From an uncultured Solirubrobacteraceae bacterium (GTDB lineage Bacteria; Actinomycetota; Thermoleophilia; Solirubrobacterales; Solirubrobacteraceae), in NCBI GenBank assembly GCA_964588985.1, contig CAZPQW010000001.1, forward strand, positions 256,001 through 320,000: a stretch of DNA of 64,000 bases, read 5' to 3'. The notes beneath the pieces were generated by a model that worked only from the letters and a program-made list of their open reading frames with translations, ran no database searches and had not been told where the DNA came from. The position numbers and the translations under genes were made by a program. Each line of letters opens with the position of its first letter. The first letter of the stretch is position 1. Positions 16,957 to 32,663 of the stretch are shown piece after piece.

Positions 16957-17976
16957 ATGCACGCCGAGCGACTGACCGCGCAGATGCTCGCCGGGCCGCC
17001 GGCGAGCGACCCGGTGGAGGTGACACGCAGGCTGCTCGCGGTGCAGGGGCAGGACCCGCGTGGAGCGCGGCTCGCGATCCGCGCGCGGAGCACCGGCCTC
17101 TCAGCGGCGGACGTCGATCGCGCGCTCACGGAGGACCGCTCGCTGCTGATCACGTGGGTGAACCGCGGCACTCTGCATCTGCTCGCGAGCGAGGACTACC
17201 CGTGGCTGCACGAGCTCACCGCGCCGACGCTGTTCACCGCCGCCGCGAGGCGCCTCGCGCAGGAGGGTGTCACGCCGGACGCGGCCGATCGCGCGGTGGC
17301 GGCGGTCGAGAGCTCGCTGGCCGAGGAGGGGCCGCTGAGCAGGCTGCAGCTGCGCGAGCGGATCGACGCCGTGGGTGTGCGCACGGAGGGGCAGGCGCTG
17401 GTGCACTTGCTGCTGCTCGCGACGCTGCGCGGGCTGACGGTGCGCGGGCCGATTGTGGAGGGGCAGCACGCGTATGTGCTCGTGCGCGACTGGCTAGGGG
17501 AATCCGCGCCGGTCGATCGCGAGCGCGCACTCGCGGAGCTCGCCCGCAGGTATCTCGTGGGTCACGCGCCGGCCGACGAGCGCGACCTCGCGAAGTGGGC
17601 GGGCCTGCCACTGCGCGACGCGCGCGCAGGCCTCGCCGCGATCGCGTCGCAGCTGCATCAGCGCGAGGACGGGCTCGTCGAGCTCACGGGTAGCGGTGCG
17701 CCCGCACCGCTACCGCCACCGCGCCTGCTCGGGTCGTTCGAGCCGGTGCTGCTCGGATGGCGCTCGCGCGCGGCGTTGCTGGGCGCGCACGAGCAGCGGC
17801 TCGTCACGAACAACGGCATCTTCCGCCCGTTCGCGATGGTGAACGGGCGCGCGGTCGCCGTGTGGAAGCTGTCGGCTGGGAAGGTCACCCTCGAGCCCTT
17901 CGCGCGGATCGCGGCGAAGGACGAGGCGGCGCTGCAGGCGGACGCCGAGGATGTCGTCCGCTTCCTCTCCCGTTAG
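16957..17976 (+). CDS. AlkZ/YcaQ-family (HTH_42) DNA glycosylase-like protein
   Basis: AVQGQD (QxQ motif), WVNRGTLHL, LARRYLVGHAPA...DLAKWAGL. Confidence 0.82.
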   Translation: MHAERLTAQMLAGPPASDPVEVTRRLLAVQGQDPRGARLAIRARSTGLSAADVDRALTEDRSLLITWVNRGTLHLLASEDYPWLHELTAPTLFTAAARRLAQEGVTPDAADRAVAAVESSLAEEGPLSRLQLRERIDAVGVRTEGQALVHLLLLATLRGLTVRGPIVEGQHAYVLVRDWLGESAPVDRERALAELARRYLVGHAPADERDLAKWAGLPLRDARAGLAAIASQLHQREDGLVELTGSGAPAPLPPPRLLGSFEPVLLGWRSRAALLGAHEQRLVTNNGIFRPFAMVNGRAVAVWKLSAGKVTLEPFARIAAKDEAALQADAEDVVRFLSR

Positions 17977-18521
17977 CCGGGGATCGCCACCCTCAGGATT
18001 GGGGCGCTCGTCGGGCTCGGGCTGCCACCGAGCGGCTCGGCGGTGACGAGCACGCTGCGCACGCCGCGCAGGCTGCCGGGGATCTGCACGTCGGCGCTAC
18101 CCGCTCTCGTGACCGTGAACAGCGCGTCGGTGGGTCGTGGCGGAGCGCCCGGTCGATCGAGCCAGAGCTCGTAGACCTCGCCGAACGGCGGCTCGGACAT
18201 CCGAGATATCTCCAGCTCCGTGCTGTGTCCGACACGTCGGAGCGAAACCACGGGGGCGCTTGCGCGCGCGCCGCTGTTCGGCGTTCCGGCGGGGTTTCCG
18301 CTTCTCAACGATCCGACCAGCGCAAGTGCACCGCTGAGCGCGAGCGCCGTGCAGACGAGGCCGCCCCCGGTCTGCATCGCACGCCGTCCGCGCACCGGCT
18401 TTCCCGGATCGCCATTGCCGCCGGCCGCCGCCAGTACGCGTCGACGAAGAGAGCCTGGTGCGATCACCCGCTGCGCGGGCACCTGAGCGGTGCTGCAAGA
18501 CGATCGTGTCGAGCGAAGCAT
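17973..18521 (-). CDS. stand-alone RskA C-terminal-domain protein (no ZAS domain)
   Basis: TM segment, then GEVYELWL...TDALFTV...VLVTAEPLGGSPSPTS, closely similar to the C-terminus of 22800-23519; start position uncertain. Confidence 0.75.
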   Translation of the reverse strand: MLRSTRSSCSTAQVPAQRVIAPGSLRRRVLAAAGGNGDPGKPVRGRRAMQTGGGLVCTALALSGALALVGSLRSGNPAGTPNSGARASAPVVSLRRVGHSTELEISRMSEPPFGEVYELWLDRPGAPPRPTDALFTVTRAGSADVQIPGSLRGVRSVLVTAEPLGGSPSPTSAPILRVAIPG

Positions 18522-18530
18522 CGAGTTCCC

Positions 18531-18556
18531 TACGCACAGCGCCCCGCGGTGGATCA
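18531..18556 (-). promoter_or_regulatory. ECF (SigK-like) promoter copy 1
   Basis: Minus strand TGATCC-accgcggggcgctgtg-CGTA, 9 nt before ATG 18521. Confidence 0.8.
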
Positions 18557-18602
18557 CTCCCGCGCTCAATCGCCGGCGACGCGCGCAATTAACACTCTCG
18601 AT

Positions 18603-18628
18603 TGATCCGTATTCGCGCTGACGGCGTA
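18603..18628 (+). promoter_or_regulatory. ECF (SigK-like) promoter copy 2
   Basis: TGATCC-gtattcgcgctgacgg-CGTA upstream of the first ferritin-like gene. Confidence 0.82.
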
Positions 18629-18697
18629 GTCACACCAAGCAAGGCTGACAGGGGGAGGTTTCCTCAGCCGACCTGCCAACCCCAACATGGGAGAGTC

Positions 18698-19390
18698 ATG
18701 ACTTACACGATCAACCTGGATGAGGTCGATGTTGACGGTGCGGTACGCGAGGCGGCGGACGACGTGTCGGGTGACACGCGACTGAGCTTCCTCAAGAAGG
18801 CCGGTGTCGCGGGCGGCGCGGCGATGAGCGGCGGCGCGACTCTGTCAGTGTTCGCGCCGAGCGCGTTCGCGGCAAGTCACGGTCGCCCGCCGGCGAAATT
18901 CGGTAAAGGTGACATCGGCATACTCAACTACGCGCTCACGCTCGAGTATCTCGAGGCGGCGTTCTACAACGGCGCAACCGCGGCGAACCTGCCGCTTAGC
19001 GCCCAGGCGAGCGCGTTCCTGAAGGTGGTCACCGCCGATGAGAACGCACACGTCGCGTTCCTCAAGAAGGCGCTCGGCAAAAAAGCCGTCGCGTCGCCGA
19101 AGTTCGACTTCAAAGGCTCCAACACCAACGCCGAAACGTTCATGAAGACCGCACAGGTCTTGGAGAACACGGGCGTGCACGCCTATTCGGGGCAGGCCCT
19201 CAACATCAAGTCGGCCACGTACGTCAAGGCAGCATTGTCGATCCTTACGATCGAGGCTCGCCACGCGAGCGTGATCGGGCTGCTGAACGACCCGACGGGC
19301 AAGGAAATCGCACCCGACGGCCCGTTCGACACACCGCTCACGGCGTCGAAGGTGCTCGCCGCGGTGAAGGCCACCGGCTTCGTCGTCTGA
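18698..19390 (+). CDS. ferritin-like (Ferritin_2/desiccation-related) protein 1 with Tat-type signal
   Basis: ILNYALTLEYLE, DENAH, LENTG, IEARH di-metal ligands; signal DTRLSFLKK...AFA. Confidence 0.9.
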   Translation: MTYTINLDEVDVDGAVREAADDVSGDTRLSFLKKAGVAGGAAMSGGATLSVFAPSAFAASHGRPPAKFGKGDIGILNYALTLEYLEAAFYNGATAANLPLSAQASAFLKVVTADENAHVAFLKKALGKKAVASPKFDFKGSNTNAETFMKTAQVLENTGVHAYSGQALNIKSATYVKAALSILTIEARHASVIGLLNDPTGKEIAPDGPFDTPLTASKVLAAVKATGFVV

Positions 19391-19434
19391 GTGCACGTGC
19401 GATTCCCGACAAACACGACGTGGAGGTAGTGAAG

Positions 19435-20124
19435 ATGTCAAGTGCAACCAGTGAGGACACGGCTCCGCAGCCGGCTGGGATCGTCGAGCGACTCGTGCGC
19501 GACGATCTCGACCGAAAGCGGTTCCTGAAGGTGGTCGGAAGCGCAGGCGCGGCGAGCTTCGGCGCGTTCGTGATGGCGGCGTGCGGCAGTTCCAGCAAGA
19601 CCGCCTCGACGGCAGCGGCGCCGACGACGACGTCGACCGCCACGACCGGCGGTGGCGGTGACATCGCGATCCTCAACTACGCGCTCACGCTCGAGTACCT
19701 CGAGACCGCGTTCTACGAGAAGGTGATCGCGGCGGAACTGTTCAGCGGCAAGGTCGGAGGTCTGCTCGAGGACTTCGGCCGTCAGGAGGCATCGCACGTG
19801 GTCGCGCTGAAAGCGGCTGTCAGCAAGCTCGGAGGCACGCCGGCCACGAAGCCGAACGCGAAGTTCCCGATCACGAGCGCCACACAGGTGGCCGAGCTCG
19901 CCTACACCGTCGAGAATCTCGGCGCGTCGGCGTATCTCGGGCAGGCGGCGAACATCCAGAGTCCCGAGGTCCTGGCCTCGGCGCTCGCGATCCACTCCGT
20001 CGAGGCGCGCCACGCGGCGACCCTCGGCACGCTGGTCAAGAAGTCGGTCTCTCCGGACGGGGCGTTCGCCAAGCCGGCTGACATGTCAACTGTGCTGGCG
20101 GCCGTCAAGCCGTTCCTGGCCTGA
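19435..20124 (+). CDS. ferritin-like protein 2, Tat-type lipoprotein
   Basis: DRKRFLK, lipobox MAAC, Ser/Thr linker; LEYLE, QEASH, VENLG, VEARH. Confidence 0.9.
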   Translation: MSSATSEDTAPQPAGIVERLVRDDLDRKRFLKVVGSAGAASFGAFVMAACGSSSKTASTAAAPTTTSTATTGGGGDIAILNYALTLEYLETAFYEKVIAAELFSGKVGGLLEDFGRQEASHVVALKAAVSKLGGTPATKPNAKFPITSATQVAELAYTVENLGASAYLGQAANIQSPEVLASALAIHSVEARHAATLGTLVKKSVSPDGAFAKPADMSTVLAAVKPFLA

Positions 20125-20152
20125 TCGCTGCTGGAAAAGGAGCACGAAAACG

Positions 20153-20809
20153 ATGTCCGACAAACAACTCACACATTCGAGCCGCGCTGCGCTCGCCAAT
20201 CCCGAGCTGGCCTCGCTGGAGGTGCACGGCATGACGCGCGGGAGCTTCATCCTGCGTGGCGCGCTCGCAGCGGGAGCGTTCTACGGAACCACGGCGGTGA
20301 CGCCGTTCGTCTCACAGGCGCTCGCCGAAACCGGTGGGGGTGACGTTGACATCCTCAACTTCGCGCTCACCCTCGAGTACCTCGAGGCCGACTTCTACAC
20401 GGTCAAGGGGAGGTCGCTGAAACTCAGCGGGCAGGCGAAGGCCTACGCGCAGCAGTTCGGCGAAGAGGAGGCAGAGCACGTCACGGCGCTGATCGCCGCG
20501 ATCAAACAGCTGGGCGGCACTGCGGTGAAGAAACCGCAGTTCGTGTTTCCGGCGAGCAGCGAGAGCTCGTTTCTGGCGCTCGCCTCGGTGCTGGAGAACA
20601 CCGGAGTGGGCGCCTACAACGGCGCTGCTCCCTCGCTTCAGAGCAAGCAGGTGCTTGCGGCTGCCGGCGGGATCGTGCAGATCGAGGCTCGTCACGCGGC
20701 GGCGATCGACCTGCTGATCGGCAAGAGCCCGACGCCGACCGAAGGGTTCGACACGCCGCTCACCAAGGCGCAGGTGCTCGCCAAGGCGGGGCCGCTGATC
20801 AAGGCCTAG
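20153..20809 (+). CDS. ferritin-like protein 3 with Tat-type signal
   Basis: MTRGSFILR...SQALA; LEYLE, EEAEH, LENTG, IEARH; AAGGAG RBS. Confidence 0.9.
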   Translation: MSDKQLTHSSRAALANPELASLEVHGMTRGSFILRGALAAGAFYGTTAVTPFVSQALAETGGGDVDILNFALTLEYLEADFYTVKGRSLKLSGQAKAYAQQFGEEEAEHVTALIAAIKQLGGTAVKKPQFVFPASSESSFLALASVLENTGVGAYNGAAPSLQSKQVLAAAGGIVQIEARHAAAIDLLIGKSPTPTEGFDTPLTKAQVLAKAGPLIKA

Positions 20810-20836
20810 CAAGTGAAGCAGTGGAGGGGTCGCGGG

Positions 20837-20862
20837 TGATCCGCCGGCGGCCCCTCCGCGTA
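20837..20862 (+). promoter_or_regulatory. ECF (SigK-like) promoter copy 3
   Basis: TGATCC-gccggcggcccctccg-CGTA upstream of tatA. Confidence 0.82.
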
Positions 20863-20900
20863 ATACCAACCAGAGTCAATCTCAGGAGGCAACACCAATC

Positions 20901-21119
20901 ATGGGTCTCGACAATCCAATCCACATCGCATTTCTGCTGATCCTGCTGCTGCTCGTGTTCGGCGCCAAGCGCCTGCCGGAGATGGGCAAATCGCTCGGCA
21001 CCGGAATGCGCGGCTTCAAGGACGCGCTCAGCGGTGAGAGCGAGCCGGCGCCGCAGATCGCACACGAGCCGCAGGCAGTCGCTGTGGCTCCTGTTCCCGC
21101 CGAGAAGATCGCCGCCTGA
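20901..21119 (+). CDS. tatA: twin-arginine translocase TatA
   Basis: Short TM, FG hinge, AKRLPEMGKSLGTGMRGFK amphipathic helix; AGGAGG RBS. Confidence 0.95.
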   Translation: MGLDNPIHIAFLLILLLLVFGAKRLPEMGKSLGTGMRGFKDALSGESEPAPQIAHEPQAVAVAPVPAEKIAA

Positions 21120-21121
21120 TC

Positions 21122-22093
21122 ATGGCGGTTGCCGTCGGCAGGATCGGGCACGAAGATCGGGTCAGCCTGGTCGACCATCTGCAGGAGCTGCGCGGCCGTC
21201 TGATCATCTCGCTGGTCGCGGTAGCGGTGACGTTCGCGCTGTGCATGTGGCAGAACCACGCGCTGTTGAACATCATCAACGAGCCGCTCTCGCACGAGAC
21301 GCAAAAGCAGGTGAAGGCGGGCAACGGGCCGCTCGGCGCGACGTACACCGTCCAACAGAACGCGCGTGCGCTCGCCACCGAGCTGCAGGTGGTGGTGGGC
21401 GTGCTGGGGCGGCCCGGCAGCGGCGCCTCGCCCGCGGCCCGCGCAGCACTGGCGCCGGTCGCACCGCAGCTGCAGCGCCAGATCGCGAGTCTCTCGGCTC
21501 CGCCGCAGGGCAACAAGCCGGTGACGCTCGGGATCGGCGAGCCGTTCACCACGACGATCGGCATCGCGCTGATCTTCGCGTTGATCCTCGCGCTCCCCGT
21601 GATCCTGTACGAGCTGTACGGATTCCTGCTGCCGGCTTTCAGTCCCGAGCAGCGCAGCGTGACGACGCCCCTGATGCTGGCGATCCCGTTCCTGTTCGTG
21701 GCGGGTGTGCTGTTCGGGTACTTCGTGGTGCTCCCGGCGGCGGTGCGCTTCTTTCAGAACTTCAACAGCGGCCAGTTCAACGTGCTGGTGCAGGCCAACC
21801 AGTACTACCACTTCGCCGCGGTGACACTGCTGGCGATGGGACTCGTCTTCCAGGTTCCCGTCGGCATTCTCGCGGCCACTCGCGCGGGAGTCGTGACGAC
21901 GCGCCAGCTGCGCCACAACCGCCGCTATGCGATCCTCGCGTGCGGCGCGGTGGCGGCGTTCCTCCCCGGCGATGCGGTCACACTCGTCCTCGAGACGGTT
22001 CCGCTGTACCTGCTGTTCGAGCTGAGCGTTCTGATCGCCAGGTTCATCGAGCACCGCGAAGCCCGCCGGACGGCCGCAGATGCACTCCGATGA
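21122..22093 (+). CDS. tatC: twin-arginine translocase TatC
   Basis: SLVDHLQELRGRL, LPVILYELYGFLLPA, FGYFVVLPAA, GLVFQVP, PLYLLFELS. Confidence 0.95.
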   Translation: MAVAVGRIGHEDRVSLVDHLQELRGRLIISLVAVAVTFALCMWQNHALLNIINEPLSHETQKQVKAGNGPLGATYTVQQNARALATELQVVVGVLGRPGSGASPAARAALAPVAPQLQRQIASLSAPPQGNKPVTLGIGEPFTTTIGIALIFALILALPVILYELYGFLLPAFSPEQRSVTTPLMLAIPFLFVAGVLFGYFVVLPAAVRFFQNFNSGQFNVLVQANQYYHFAAVTLLAMGLVFQVPVGILAATRAGVVTTRQLRHNRRYAILACGAVAAFLPGDAVTLVLETVPLYLLFELSVLIARFIEHREARRTAADALR

Positions 22094-22147
22094 CCGCGAC
22101 CGCCGGCTCCGCTGGCATCGGTGGGAGGATCCTCGCGCGTGGATGAG

Positions 22148-22173
22148 TGATCCAAACGCGGGTATCTGCCGTA
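22148..22173 (+). promoter_or_regulatory. ECF (SigK-like) promoter copy 4 (autoregulatory)
   Basis: TGATCC-aaacgcgggtatctgc-CGTA just before the sigma gene ATG. Confidence 0.85.
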
Positions 22174-22176
22174 ACC

Positions 22177-22803
22177 ATGACGAGCATGTTCAATCCCTTG
22201 CGTCCAGCTGCTGGTGGAGGAGATTCGGTGGAGCGGCTGCGCGTGCTCGCGGACGAGGAGCTCATGCAGCTCGTTTACAGGAGCCGAGCGGACGCGTTCG
22301 AGGTCATCTATGACCGTCATGCCGACGCCGCCTTCTCGCTCGCCCTGCGCATCTGCGGCCAGCGTGCGCTTGCCGAGGATGTCGTGCAGGAGGCGTTCCT
22401 GTCGTTGTGGCGCAGCCAGGCGCACTACGACCGCGGCCGCGGGAGCGTGCGCACCTGGCTGCTCGGCATCGTGCACAACCGCGCGATCGACGCGTTGCGC
22501 AGACGCGCAGTGCGCGAGCGCGGGATCGTCGACGAAGAGGGACTTGAGGAGCGAGTCGCCTCGCCCGAGCGCACAGACCTGGAGTTCGCGCGCCGCGAGG
22601 AGGCGCGCCAGGTCCGCGACGCGCTCGAGCAACTGCCCGGGGAGCAGAGCCGGGTGATCGAGCTCGCTTACTTCGGCGGTCTCACACACGTCCAGATCGC
22701 GTCGATGCTCGACACGCCGGTGGGAACGATCAAGGGCCGCATGCGTCTCGGTCTTTCGAAGATGCGCATCACGCTCGGCGACCCGGCGGAGGCGGCGCGA
22801 TGA
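22177..22803 (+). CDS. SigK-like ECF sigma factor
   Basis: AEDVVQEAFLSLWR...YDRGRGSVRTWLLGIVHNRAID; IELAYFGGLTHVQIA...PVGTIKGRMRLGL. Start may be 22177 or 22186. Confidence 0.92.
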   Translation: MTSMFNPLRPAAGGGDSVERLRVLADEELMQLVYRSRADAFEVIYDRHADAAFSLALRICGQRALAEDVVQEAFLSLWRSQAHYDRGRGSVRTWLLGIVHNRAIDALRRRAVRERGIVDEEGLEERVASPERTDLEFARREEARQVRDALEQLPGEQSRVIELAYFGGLTHVQIASMLDTPVGTIKGRMRLGLSKMRITLGDPAEAAR

Positions 22804-23519
22804 GCCCCGACGAGATCGACATCCACATGGACGGCTGCGGCGTGGACGCCGCGCCATACGTGCTCGGATCGCTCACCGACCAGGAGGTCGAGACGTTCAA
22901 GGCCCACCTCGCGACGTGCGCGGTCTGCCGCGAGGAAGTGGCCGCGCTGCAGACGATCGTGTCGACGCTGCCCGCCGCAGCCCCCCAGGTGCAGGCGCCC
23001 ACGGAGCTCAAGCAGAGGGTGCTCGCCACCGTGCGACAGGAGGTCAGCCTGCACGGGGGCCCGGCCACATCAGGCGGAGCAAGGACCGGACGCAAGCCGT
23101 CACGGTCGTGGCTCGGATGGCGCCCGGCGCTCGCCGGTGTCGGCGTGGCGGCGGTCGTCGCGGTGGTTCTCGCGATTGCGCTTGCTCCGGGAGGAGGCGG
23201 CGGCGCTACGCGCACGATTCAGGCCGAAGTGCTCGCCCCGCGCGCGAGCGCGACGTTGCGGGTGAGCGACGGTCACGCCGAACTGAACATCGCCCGCATG
23301 CCGCAGACGACGCCCGGCCGCGTGTATGAGGTGTGGATTCAGCGCAGCGGACCGCCGCAGCCCACGAACGCGCTGTTCACCGTCAGCCGCGCAGGCGACG
23401 CCACCGTCGGCGTGCCCGGAGCGATCGCCGGCGTGAAGGTGGTCATGGTCACCTCCGAGCCGCGAGGCGGCAGCGCCGTCCCTACGCGCTCGCCTGTGAT
23501 CGTCGCGCACGTCAGCTGA
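22800..23519 (+). CDS. RskA-like anti-sigma factor (ZAS, TM, extracytoplasmic RskA_C)
   Basis: APYVLGSL...HLATCAVC, one TM, VYEVW and VTSEPRGGS motifs; ATGA overlap with the sigma gene. Confidence 0.9.
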   Translation: MSPDEIDIHMDGCGVDAAPYVLGSLTDQEVETFKAHLATCAVCREEVAALQTIVSTLPAAAPQVQAPTELKQRVLATVRQEVSLHGGPATSGGARTGRKPSRSWLGWRPALAGVGVAAVVAVVLAIALAPGGGGGATRTIQAEVLAPRASATLRVSDGHAELNIARMPQTTPGRVYEVWIQRSGPPQPTNALFTVSRAGDATVGVPGAIAGVKVVMVTSEPRGGSAVPTRSPVIVAHVS

Positions 23520-23730
23520 CAGCGGTCACGAGCAGCTCCTCATCGCCCACGCGCACCGTGTCGCCGCGAGCGAGCTGGCGCCCGCGTCTGTCCTCGCGCT
23601 CGCCGTTGACCCACACGGGCTCGGTCGCGAGCAGCGCCTTGGCCTCGCTGCCGCTGTCGATCAGTCCGGCGAGCTTGAGCAGCTGACCGAGCCGGATCTT
23701 CTCCTCCCTGATCGGGATCTCGCGAGCCAT
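23512..23730 (-). CDS. S4-domain RNA-binding protein (YbcJ/YaaA-like)
   Basis: IRLGQLLKLAGLIDSGSEAK...VWVNGEREDRRGRQL. Confidence 0.9.
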   Translation of the reverse strand: MAREIPIREEKIRLGQLLKLAGLIDSGSEAKALLATEPVWVNGEREDRRGRQLARGDTVRVGDEELLVTAVS

Positions 23731-31523: not shown

Positions 31524-32663
31524 ATGTCTGAGATCGACCATCCGCAGGATGTGGGGGATAGCCTGCGGCAATCCGATGGGTCACGATTCGCCTGGCCCGA
31601 GATCGACCGGCGCTCGTTCCTGCGTCGAACCGCATTGACAGGTGTGGCCGCGGGCTCGGTGAGCACCATCCTCAGCGCATGTGGCTCGGGGGGCGCGAGT
31701 TCCACCAACGCCAGTGGCGGTGGCGGTGGCGGTGGTGCATCGGGCGTGTTCGGCTCGAGCAAGAAATACAAATTCGTGTTCGTCAACCACGTGACGACGA
31801 ACCCGTTCTTCACTCCCACGCAGTACGGGGCGGCGGACGCGTGCAAGCTGCTGGGATGTGAATACCAGTGGACGGGCTCGGAAAACAGCAACGTCAGCCA
31901 GATGGTCAACGCTCTCAACAGCGCCGTGACGAGTGGCGCCGACGGCATCGCGGTCGCGCTGATCGACCTGCACGCGTTCAACGCACCGGTCGAAGCGGCT
32001 ATCAAGGCGGGCATACCGGTGGTCGCCTACAACGCGGATGCGGTCGGCAACGGTCGGCTTGCCTACATCGGCCAGGACCTGTTCAAGGCCGGCGAAGAAA
32101 TGGGCAAGAGGATCGTCGCGGCCGTCGGCTCAGGTGAAGTGGGGCTGTTCATCGCGACTCCGGGCTCGGCGAATCTGCAGCCGCGCATCGAAGGCGCCGA
32201 AAAGGCGATCAAGGACTCAGGCAAGCCGATTACCGCGAAGACGGTCGCGACCGGCGCCGCGGTGGCGCAGGAGCAGCCGGCGATCGAAGCCTGGTATCTC
32301 GGGCACAAGAACGCGAAGGGAATGTACGCGGTCGACGGTGGCAGTACCGAAAGCCTCGCCAAAGTGATGCAGAAGCTTGGCTTGGCGGCCAAAGGCGTCA
32401 AGGCGGGTGGGTTCGACCTCACCGAACAGACCCAGAAGCTGCTGCAGGAAGGCAACATCGAATTCACGATCGACCAGCAGCCTTATCTGCAGGGGTTCAT
32501 CCCGATCCTGCAGCTGTACATGTACAAGGTATCGGGCACGCTGACCGGACTGGCCGAAACGGACACCGGCCTGAAGTTCCTCGACAAGACCACCGTGGAC
32601 CCGTACGTCAAAACGAAATCCCGCTACGAGGGAACCTCCTCGTCGGTCGCGGCGATCGCCTGA
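31524..32663 (+). CDS. sugar ABC transporter substrate-binding lipoprotein (Tat signal)
   Basis: IDRRSFLRR, lipobox LSAC, NPFF, IDQQPYLQG. Confidence 0.92.
   Translation: MSEIDHPQDVGDSLRQSDGSRFAWPEIDRRSFLRRTALTGVAAGSVSTILSACGSGGASSTNASGGGGGGGASGVFGSSKKYKFVFVNHVTTNPFFTPTQYGAADACKLLGCEYQWTGSENSNVSQMVNALNSAVTSGADGIAVALIDLHAFNAPVEAAIKAGIPVVAYNADAVGNGRLAYIGQDLFKAGEEMGKRIVAAVGSGEVGLFIATPGSANLQPRIEGAEKAIKDSGKPITAKTVATGAAVAQEQPAIEAWYLGHKNAKGMYAVDGGSTESLAKVMQKLGLAAKGVKAGGFDLTEQTQKLLQEGNIEFTIDQQPYLQGFIPILQLYMYKVSGTLTGLAETDTGLKFLDKTTVDPYVKTKSRYEGTSSSVAAIA

Follow-up and report, generated by a model that had tools for sequence, protein, structure and literature searches.

Introduction

What becomes of twin-arginine translocation (Tat) when both halves of one contact are missing, an arginine from the export signal and its partner from the receptor? 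This question is raised by a gene cluster in a 64,000-nucleotide stretch of DNA from an uncultured Solirubrobacteraceae bacterium (GenBank assembly GCA_964588985.1, contig CAZPQW010000001.1, positions 256,001 to 320,000), referred to here as the window. The cluster encodes three ferritin-like proteins (FerA, FerB and FerC), a TatA, a TatC and an extracytoplasmic function (ECF) sigma/anti-sigma pair, and the assembly that contains it has a size of 3.41 Mb in 48 contigs, a completeness of 95.9% and a G+C content of 70%. According to the original prediction, the ferritin signals lack the second arginine, the adjoining TatC carries Gln at the position of Escherichia coli E103, and receptor and signals have co-evolved into a dedicated single-arginine pathway. 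The answer favoured here, as moderately probable on comparative sequence evidence, is that TatA and TatC form a cargo-linked accessory TatAC pair, co-adapted to its cargo but dispensable.

The structural frame for this question has become available only lately. In the cryo-electron microscopy (cryo-EM) structure of the E. coli TatBC–signal complex, as presented in the accessible part of the report (Deme et al. 2026, PMC13323110), the first arginine of the signal (R1) bonds E15 through water and stacks under F94, the second (R2) forms a salt bridge with E103 and packs on Y100, a cap residue caps the helix, and the consensus Phe occupies a pocket formed by F94, L9, H12 and L13. The available portion of a 2025 preprint (10.1101/2025.09.16.676506) gives the same R1 contacts, together with a predicted R2–E103 contact. 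The assignment of E15, F94 and E103 to the arginine-recognition site, which the original prediction took as established, agrees with the 2026 contacts. Accessible passages of Huang et al. (2017, PMC5539426) describe F94 and E103 as almost completely invariant and E103K as inactive, and report that more hydrophobic signal cores (h-regions) suppress both E103K and KK signals. E103G and E103K are inactivating according to the available text of Simone et al. (2013, PMC3827258), and passages of PMC5539426 and PMC7317946 treat both E103 and the two arginines as nearly invariant.

The accessory TatC and its paralogue

The genome encodes two TatC, three TatA/B-family and three Ferritin_2 proteins, the last all in this cluster. 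A second tatA–tatC pair, encoded beside candidate cargo, is present in addition to the housekeeping TatC, which is the arrangement that characterizes a cargo-linked accessory TatAC. The window TatC and the unlinked TatC of contig C13 were aligned with E. coli K-12 TatC by MAFFT, and the window TatC by HMMER with the solved chains 9dzz and 9r91, where the alignment is gapless (E 2.3e-29 for the window TatC against chain 9dzz_A). Both methods place Q177 of the window TatC (codon 21650-21652) in the E103 column, while F168 corresponds to F94 and E22, within H-L-Q-E-L-R, to E15, which bears out what had been read by eye. R104 and H12-L13 are also retained, and R105 and Y100 are each replaced by Ser. 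The region reads P-A-F-S-P-E-Q-R-S in the window TatC versus P-A-L-K-P-N-E-R-R in the paralogue, which has Glu in the E103 column, and E15, F94 and R104 are invariant among the E. coli, window and C13 proteins. Membership of the window protein in the TatC family is clear from PF00902 (173.2 bits versus a cut-off of 25.1, profile positions 1-208) and TIGR00945 (161 versus 132.7 bits); the canonical set of E15, F94 and E103 is incomplete in it owing to Gln177.

Both paralogues also contain an insertion of about 65 amino acids in periplasmic loop 1 (window 21300-21500, TatC residues ~60-126; the other copy is L001:1303-2391), which is absent from E. coli TatC and from the 255-266-amino-acid TatCs of families f2 to f6. 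Complex prediction pairing the accessory TatC with FerA residues 1-62, from alignments of 44 and 30 rows respectively (29 of the latter used), scored 0.00 in both runs, was made without controls, and is not used here either way.

The ferritin-like cargo and its signals

All three ferritin-like proteins exceed the Ferritin_2 cut-off of 24.7 bits, and the metal ligands E / ExxH / E / ExxH are legible in all three translations. Among solved structures, FerC is closest to that of RvY_06210, a ferritin-like protein from a tardigrade (E 7.4e-14). The 120 FerC matches listed are all at least 77% identical, so they offer no diversity. RvFeMP-1/RvY_06210 is described in the available part of its report as a dinuclear-metal metabolite phosphatase tied to desiccation tolerance, with a Deinococcus homologue (PMC11616004). 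If the metal site is put together in the cytoplasm, this would account for the predicted export of these ferritin-like proteins by Tat.

None of the three signals has the two consecutive arginines of the canonical motif (S/T-R-R-x-F-L-K), with R-L, R-K and R-G in place of R-R. FerA reads T27-R-L-S-F-L-K-K (T-R-L-S-F-L-K at 18776-18796), followed by an h-region rich in Gly and Ala, with A-F-A ahead of the mature part; FerB reads D26-R-K-R-F-L-K (19510-19530), with a lipobox-like M-A-A-C that ends the h-region and a Ser/Thr-rich linker after it; and FerC reads T28-R-G-S-F-I-L-R (20234-20257), with A-L-A before the mature part. The other features of a Tat signal are present: the rest of the motif, an h-region that is Gly/Ala-rich and only weakly hydrophobic, and either an A-x-A site or a lipobox. 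The same genome also has ordinary twin-arginine (RR) signals, including the D-R-R-S-F-L-R-R of the sugar-binding lipoprotein at 31524, which the original prediction had named as the canonical counterpart. A strict motif scan of the genome returned six RR signals, the three ferritins and six noise-like matches; it replaced a looser scan for R-x signals, whose 274 'Rx' matches were mainly wrong-frame noise of a genome with 70% G+C. The NCBIfam Tat-signal model gave no match at E up to 1 for the ferritins, nor for an RR control, and is hence uninformative.

The absence of RR, read directly in the window, holds for all orthologues read in the genus. FerA orthologues read T-R-[L/A]-x-F-[L/M]-[K/R], with RR absent in 34/34; FerB orthologues read [D/N/S]-R-K-[R/K]-F-[L/M]-[K/R], with R-K in 37/37; and FerC orthologues read [T/S]-R-[S/A/G]-x-[F/L]-..., with a single Arg in all 38 readable copies, one more being cut by a contig end. 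In contrast to R2, the other motif positions (-1, R1, F, L, K) are conserved among the orthologues, and D26, T27, R28, F31 and L32 are invariant in an alignment of 30 FerA sequences. Outside the genus, the FerA- and FerC-type signals have a single Arg in all cases read across the class, whereas the FerB signal varies by family, with R-R in f3, f4 and f7 but R-K in f1, f2 and a single genus of f9. The lone Arg lies three residues before the Phe, which is the R1 register. Thus, what is kept (cap residue, R1, F, L and K in the signals; E15, F94 and H12-L13 in the receptor) and what is lost (R2 and E103) are matching halves of one contact.

Compensation for the missing R2 by a more hydrophobic h-region, as in Huang et al. 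(2017), is rejected, since the hydropathy of the ferritin signals (1.03-1.70) lies in the range of six RR signals of the same genome (1.06-1.56). Separately, these signals are peculiar in that the n-regions before the single Arg (18698-18775, 19435-19509 and 20153-20233) are long and conserved, which is unusual for signals. That of FerA, I-N-L-x-E-[IV]-D-x-D-G-A-[IV]-R-E-A, is discernible even in other orders of the class, and those of FerB and FerC read P-A-G-I-V-E-R-L-V-R-D-D and P-E-L-A-x-x-E-V-H-G, respectively. These segments might bind a chaperone or add contacts with TatC.

Receptor residue and gene context in the genus

The survey covered 61 relatives and then 121 genomes of the genus, with TatC found in 119/121 and Ferritin_2 in 87/121 (G065, an unpublished genome, enters these counts and nothing else). 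TatC copies in the resulting 116 loci were sorted by their gene neighbours and not by residue, and from 97 full-length TatCs two broken copies (L058, L130) and one of another family (L094) were set aside, leaving 94 intact. All 57 cluster-linked copies have Q (46) or H (11) in the E103 column and all 37 unlinked copies have E, a split between context and residue with zero exceptions among the 94. E15 is retained in 97/97 and F94 in 96/97, the sole exception being a frameshifted copy. Within 6.5 kb of the 57 accessory TatCs, a TatA is found in 54 cases, an ECF sigma factor in 45, an anti-sigma factor in 45 and a strong ferritin match in 38, whereas all four counts are 0 for the 37 housekeeping TatCs; two of the 57 (L133 and L148) lie on contigs too short for TatA or sigma to show. 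The accessory copies form one clade (SH-aLRT, the Shimodaira-Hasegawa-like approximate likelihood ratio test, 98; quick IQ-TREE of 116 rows) and are well conserved, with a mean column identity of 81% over 44 sequences.

Recurrence in the order Solirubrobacterales

Beyond the genus, five further families of Solirubrobacterales supplied 20 TatC loci, 17 with E and three with Q, the latter being the accessory copies; those of G050 and G054 directly follow FerB-FerC-TatA or FerA-FerB-FerC-TatA. A class-wide FerC search gave matches in 65/301 genomes, from which 29 loci were read, as were all TatC copies of 30 genomes (the 29 and G045). In the order outside the genus, the second, ferritin-cluster TatC is non-E in 5/5 genomes (Q in G149, G160, G050 and G054; A in G361), and the sole TatC is E in 16/16 ferritin-bearing genomes, including G059, whose only TatC is ferritin-linked. 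G045 has a second copy with Q and no ferritin in view. Two outcomes that the original prediction had named as fatal to it are thus absent: housekeeping TatCs of the clade do not share the Gln, and ferritin-linked TatCs do not keep Glu where they are second copies.

In a tree of 85 rows, the non-E copies fall inside the E copies of their own family, with supports of 99 for f1 (the genus and g16), 99 for the f2 pair, 97 for L230 of f4 and 93 for L170 of f5, and the f2 pair groups beside the f2 housekeeping copies. The marked branches force at least three changes, the non-E copies occurring in at least three separate family clades, and Gln is the outcome in three of four independent events. Moreover, the loop-1 insertion, common to both f1 paralogues and absent in f2 to f6, argues for separate duplications. 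E103 is lost only in second, cargo-linked copies and is kept whenever TatC is the sole copy, without exception in the Solirubrobacterales data and across three to four lineages, and the outcome in the 57 copies of the genus is only Q or H; this pattern argues for co-adaptation over free drift, and co-adaptation of receptor and signal is likely from these comparisons. Since the loss occurs only in such copies and several times independently, it would reflect release from RR clients, and the near-exclusive Gln/His outcome suggests some tuning as well.

Evidence against a co-adapted accessory pair and alternative explanations

The interpretation of the pair as a co-adapted exporter of these ferritins has to be held against several observations that weigh on the other side. 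First, 24 ferritin-bearing genomes (8 of the genus and 16 elsewhere in the order) have R2-less signals and only an E103 TatC was found in them. The eight are G008, G036, G078, G137, G094, G071, G140 and G064; their sole TatCs were read as Glu in L063, L061, L176, L177, L178 and L179, the residue being unread for G094 (two pieces) and G064. Completeness reaches 94% in G008 (4 contigs), 93% in G137 and 92% in G071 among the single-TatC genomes of the genus, and is at least 92% in G008, G071, G137, G421, G177, G166, G204, G396, G238 and G376 among the 24. In three of them, the linked tatC has been deleted, with tatA and the three ferritin genes kept (L101 of G071, L103 of G140 and L110 of G064), and the sigma gene follows 145-200 bp after tatA with no tatC between. 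R2-less signals beside a lone E103 TatC mean that the altered TatC is not needed for those signals, and this phyletic pattern stands against strict dependence of the cargo on the accessory pair. A further case of tatA without tatC is L204 (G250), in which tatA lies between two FerA-type genes.

The link between receptor and cargo is also looser at some loci. Strong ferritin matches within 6.5 kb are lacking for 19 of the 57 accessory TatCs, several of which have only divergent Ferritin_2 genes nearby, with signals S-R-S-Q-F-L-R, T-R-K-G-F-L-K or T-R-R-S-F-L. Two such genes with Pfam E ~1e-10 near accessory Q103 TatCs are L151:4290-5609 (G109; T-R-R-S-F-L) and L122:12000-12944 (G124; T-R-K-G-F-L-K). 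Between the former and the TatA-TatC(Q) pair downstream of it there are 1.2 kb and, similarly, the FerB of G361 is RR beside an A103 TatC. The client set is thus better described broadly, as the Ferritin_2 family at large. An acid occupies column 102 in 42/57 accessory versus 6/37 housekeeping TatCs, and this acid could partly replace E103. Furthermore, relatives are not independent, and the real sample is three to four evolutionary events.

Finally, no TatC copy with Glu in the E103 column is found in two other orders of the class (f7 and f9). In f7 (L212, L221, L244-L246, L249), both the housekeeping and the ferritin-linked copies always read [E/D]-Q-P-R-R, in which the acid stands two places earlier; in f9 (L220, L224, L237, L238, L240-L243, L248, L251), the column is variable. 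The rule that ferritin-linked copies are non-E and housekeeping copies E was therefore rejected for the whole class and is confined to Solirubrobacterales. The E103 column is less fixed in the class than in the textbook picture. Among the 150 closest TatC cluster representatives at 50% identity (P0121-P0270), it holds E in 79, Q in 21, H in 5, another residue in 25 and a gap in 20, so that 51 of the 130 with a residue are non-Glu, some of them frameshifted junk. Full-length non-E representatives at 38-43% identity include P0181, P0206, P0208, P0213, P0223, P0236, P0244 and P0267, and non-E TatCs are far from rare in metagenomic data.

These observations bear differently on the competing explanations. 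A strictly orthogonal route, with single-arginine signals passing only through the Q/H103 TatAC and RR signals only through the housekeeping Tat as two insulated codes in one cell, would fit the exceptionless split between context and residue 103 in genus and order, the union of the lost partners in one contact of the solved complex, the presence of both RR and R2-less signals in this genome and the inactivation of E. coli TatC by E103K and E103G, as given in the available text of PMC5539426 and PMC3827258. It is, however, very unlikely, given the 24 genomes with R2-less signals and only an E103 TatC found, several of them at least 92% complete, the three clusters that lost tatC and kept the cargo, the Glu in the ferritin-linked sole TatC of G059, and the RR-bearing ferritin-like genes beside Q103 (L151) and A103 (G361) TatCs. 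For the same reasons, the proposal of a co-evolved, dedicated single-arginine pathway stands as regards the clade-wide match of receptor and signals and falls as regards 'dedicated' and 'orthogonal'. The expected covariation of position 103 with signal position 2 did not appear either, the signals being constant with or without a Q/H TatC; thus, the lack of R2 belongs to the cargo family, and it is the altered TatC that follows the cargo and not the reverse. The R2-less signals predate the altered TatC and do not depend on it.

The RR cargo at L151 and G361 would sit more easily with a site that has shifted and not been lost, in which the acid of column 102 (Glu176 in the window) takes the role of E103, the receptor stays RR-competent and R2-less signals are a tolerated quirk of the cargo. 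The enrichment of that acid in accessory copies and the acid two places earlier in all f7 TatCs, from which its position moves within the class, point the same way. This explanation is nonetheless unlikely, because column 102 holds K, S, G, P, R, A or T in the remaining 15/57 copies of the genus and G, T or R in the independent f2 and f4 accessory copies, and because R has become Q in column 104 of 26/57, so that the whole E-R-R triad is remodelled; the caveat of the original prediction that the adjacent Glu could substitute is borne out in part, by the 42/57 copies with an acid there. From columns 102 and 104, the pocket of the accessory TatC may have been remodelled rather than merely emptied. 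There is likewise little probability, and somewhat less than for a shifted site, that the association is a coincidence, in which the ferritins would use Sec, or only the housekeeping Tat, for export, and the accessory TatAC would serve other cargo or be a decaying duplicate in which E103 drifted. The cargo does persist without the accessory TatC in many genomes and some accessory copies are in pieces (L057, L058, L059, L104, L105, L130), but the assemblies that hold the pieces are low-contig and low-completeness ones, likely to contain indel errors, and fragmentation was set aside as a sign of decay. Against coincidence also stand the recurrence of ferritin-TatA-TatC adjacency across four or more Solirubrobacterales families and two further orders of the class, the conservation of the accessory TatC, its restriction to Q or H in 57 copies with Q in three of four events, which is unlike drift, and the conservation of all non-R2 positions of the motif in the cargo. 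The accessory pair co-adapted to its cargo is therefore retained as the preferred reading, and the second exporter looks specialised rather than indispensable.

A possible mechanism and its implications

From gene content, residues, phyletic pattern and placement in the trees, we infer the following route. The three ferritin-like dinuclear-metal proteins would fold in the cytoplasm, probably loading metal there, and would be exported by Tat through [S/T/D]-R-x-x-F-L-[K/R] signals, which have every consensus position except the second Arg. FerB would become a lipoprotein, while FerA and FerC would be released after the A-x-A site. The adjoining TatA and TatC would act as a minimal translocase of the Gram-positive TatAC type, and the ECF sigma/anti-sigma pair next to them would probably switch on translocase and cargo together. 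The accessory TatC retains the R1 pocket (E15, F94 and H12-L13) and lacks the carboxylate that bridges R2 (E103 to Q, H or A). In many relatives, the ordinary E103 TatC or another route would also have to handle these signals.

The significance of this arrangement lies in the fact that both halves of one receptor–signal contact, resolved by cryo-EM only in 2026, have been removed in a natural lineage, and at least three times. As the loss is confined to TatC copies freed from general duty, it offers independent evolutionary support for the pairing of R2 with E103. The literature searched, supplements apart, contained neither an E103Q TatC nor a case in nature where the Glu that binds R2 was repeatedly lost alongside cargo signals without R2. 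The system makes testable both the contribution of each arginine to Tat targeting and the re-coding of Tat specificity towards insulated export channels. In addition, predictors based on RR will overlook, in Thermoleophilia, an entire family of proteins that are probably Tat cargo. A bolder and rather improbable extension is a natural two-channel Tat, in which Solirubrobacterales would repeatedly have evolved a second receptor whose neutralised R2 pocket prefers [S/T]-R-x-x-F-L-K and discriminates against RR. If so, stress-induced ferritin-like cargo would be exported without competition from the clients of the housekeeping Tat, and a ready-made covariation proof of the R2–E103 contact would be at hand.

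Organization of the locus

The genes of the cluster are listed in Table 1. On the plus strand, all five genes between FerA and TatC inclusive are preceded by a Shine-Dalgarno (SD)-like site. The open reading frame (ORF) of FerB opens at GTG 19420, and the ATG at 19435 is preceded by an SD-like GGAGG. The tatA stop and the tatC start are 2 nt apart, and the start of the anti-sigma gene overlaps the stop of the sigma gene. The accessory TatA scores 54.6 bits with PF02416 (cut-off 21) and lies just below the cut-off of TIGR01411 (53.4 versus 53.9); no TatB gene is present in the window cluster.

Table 1. Coordinates of the genes at the ferritin–TatAC locus (positions in the window).
Feature	Start	End	Strand	Basis and remarks
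RskA_C-domain ORF	17973	18569	-	Pfam PF10099, E 1.2e-10; without zf-HC2 match; divergent from ferritin operon
FerA, exported Ferritin_2 (predicted)	18698	19390	+	PF13668, E 5.7e-39, 133.9 bits
FerB, Ferritin_2 lipoprotein candidate	19435	20124	+	PF13668, E 9.3e-38, 129.9 bits
FerC, exported Ferritin_2 (predicted)	20153	20809	+	PF13668, E 2.2e-40, 138.4 bits
Accessory TatA, 72 aa	20901	21119	+	PF02416, E 6.3e-15
Accessory TatC, 323 aa	21122	22093	+	PF00902, E 8.1e-51
ECF sigma factor	22147	22803	+	Sigma70_r2, E 4.1e-20; Sigma70_r4_2, E 1.1e-12
Anti-sigma factor (zf-HC2 + RskA_C)	22800	23519	+	PF13490, E 2.7e-05; PF10099, E 9.7e-11

Scans of 17800-23700 returned 0 promoter-like sites of the sigma-70 type and one terminator-like site, inside FerC, which is fewer than in shuffled sequence, and the intergenic regions of the locus contain no GGAAC-type ECF -35 boxes. 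The 91-bp gap between FerC and tatA holds a G+C-rich inverted repeat, GGAGGGG...CCCCTCC (~20823-20857), which has no T-run and was not called by the terminator scan; it may serve for attenuation or processing between the cargo and translocase genes. The minus-strand RskA_C ORF is possibly, judging from its domain, a second anti-sigma-like protein, and similar ORFs adjoin FerA in L126 and L143.

Comparison with known systems

Cargo-linked accessory TatAC pairs are already known from Bacilli. The phoD-tatAd-tatCd and tatAy-tatCy loci of Bacillus subtilis resemble the present one in that a second minimal TatA-TatC pair, encoded beside its cargo, is thought to serve a narrow set of clients. The known clients of the B. 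subtilis TatAC pairs are RR proteins. The locus described here differs in its altered pocket (E103 to Q, H or A), in the R2-less signals of its cargo and in its ECF sigma/anti-sigma neighbour. As here, the paralogous TatCs of Bacilli fall in separate clades, according to the accessible part of PMC3827258. On the side of the cargo, the tardigrade protein RvFeMP-1/RvY_06210 and DRB0118 of Deinococcus belong to the same Pfam family as the window ferritins, with low identity; both are counted among the 'desiccation-related' ferritin-like metabolite phosphatases.

Signals with one arginine have precedents of another kind. The known natural one-arginine exceptions keep the second Arg (K-R, R-N-R), whereas the ferritin signals lack the second and have L, A, S, G or K in its place. 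Hinsley and colleagues reportedly described in 2001 a natural Tat signal missing one 'invariant' Arg. The suppressors of Huang et al. (2017) indicate that higher hydrophobicity of the h-region can make up for a lost RR or a lost E103, a route that is not seen here. Compared with the E. coli TatBC site, the window TatC differs in E103 to Gln, Y100 to Ser and R105 to Ser, in the loop-1 insertion of about 65 amino acids and in a cluster without TatB. Nevertheless, it belongs to the same fold family and conserves H12-L13, E15 and F94, while in its candidate cargo the signal residues that contact these positions or lipid (the cap residue, R1, F, L and K) are all retained.

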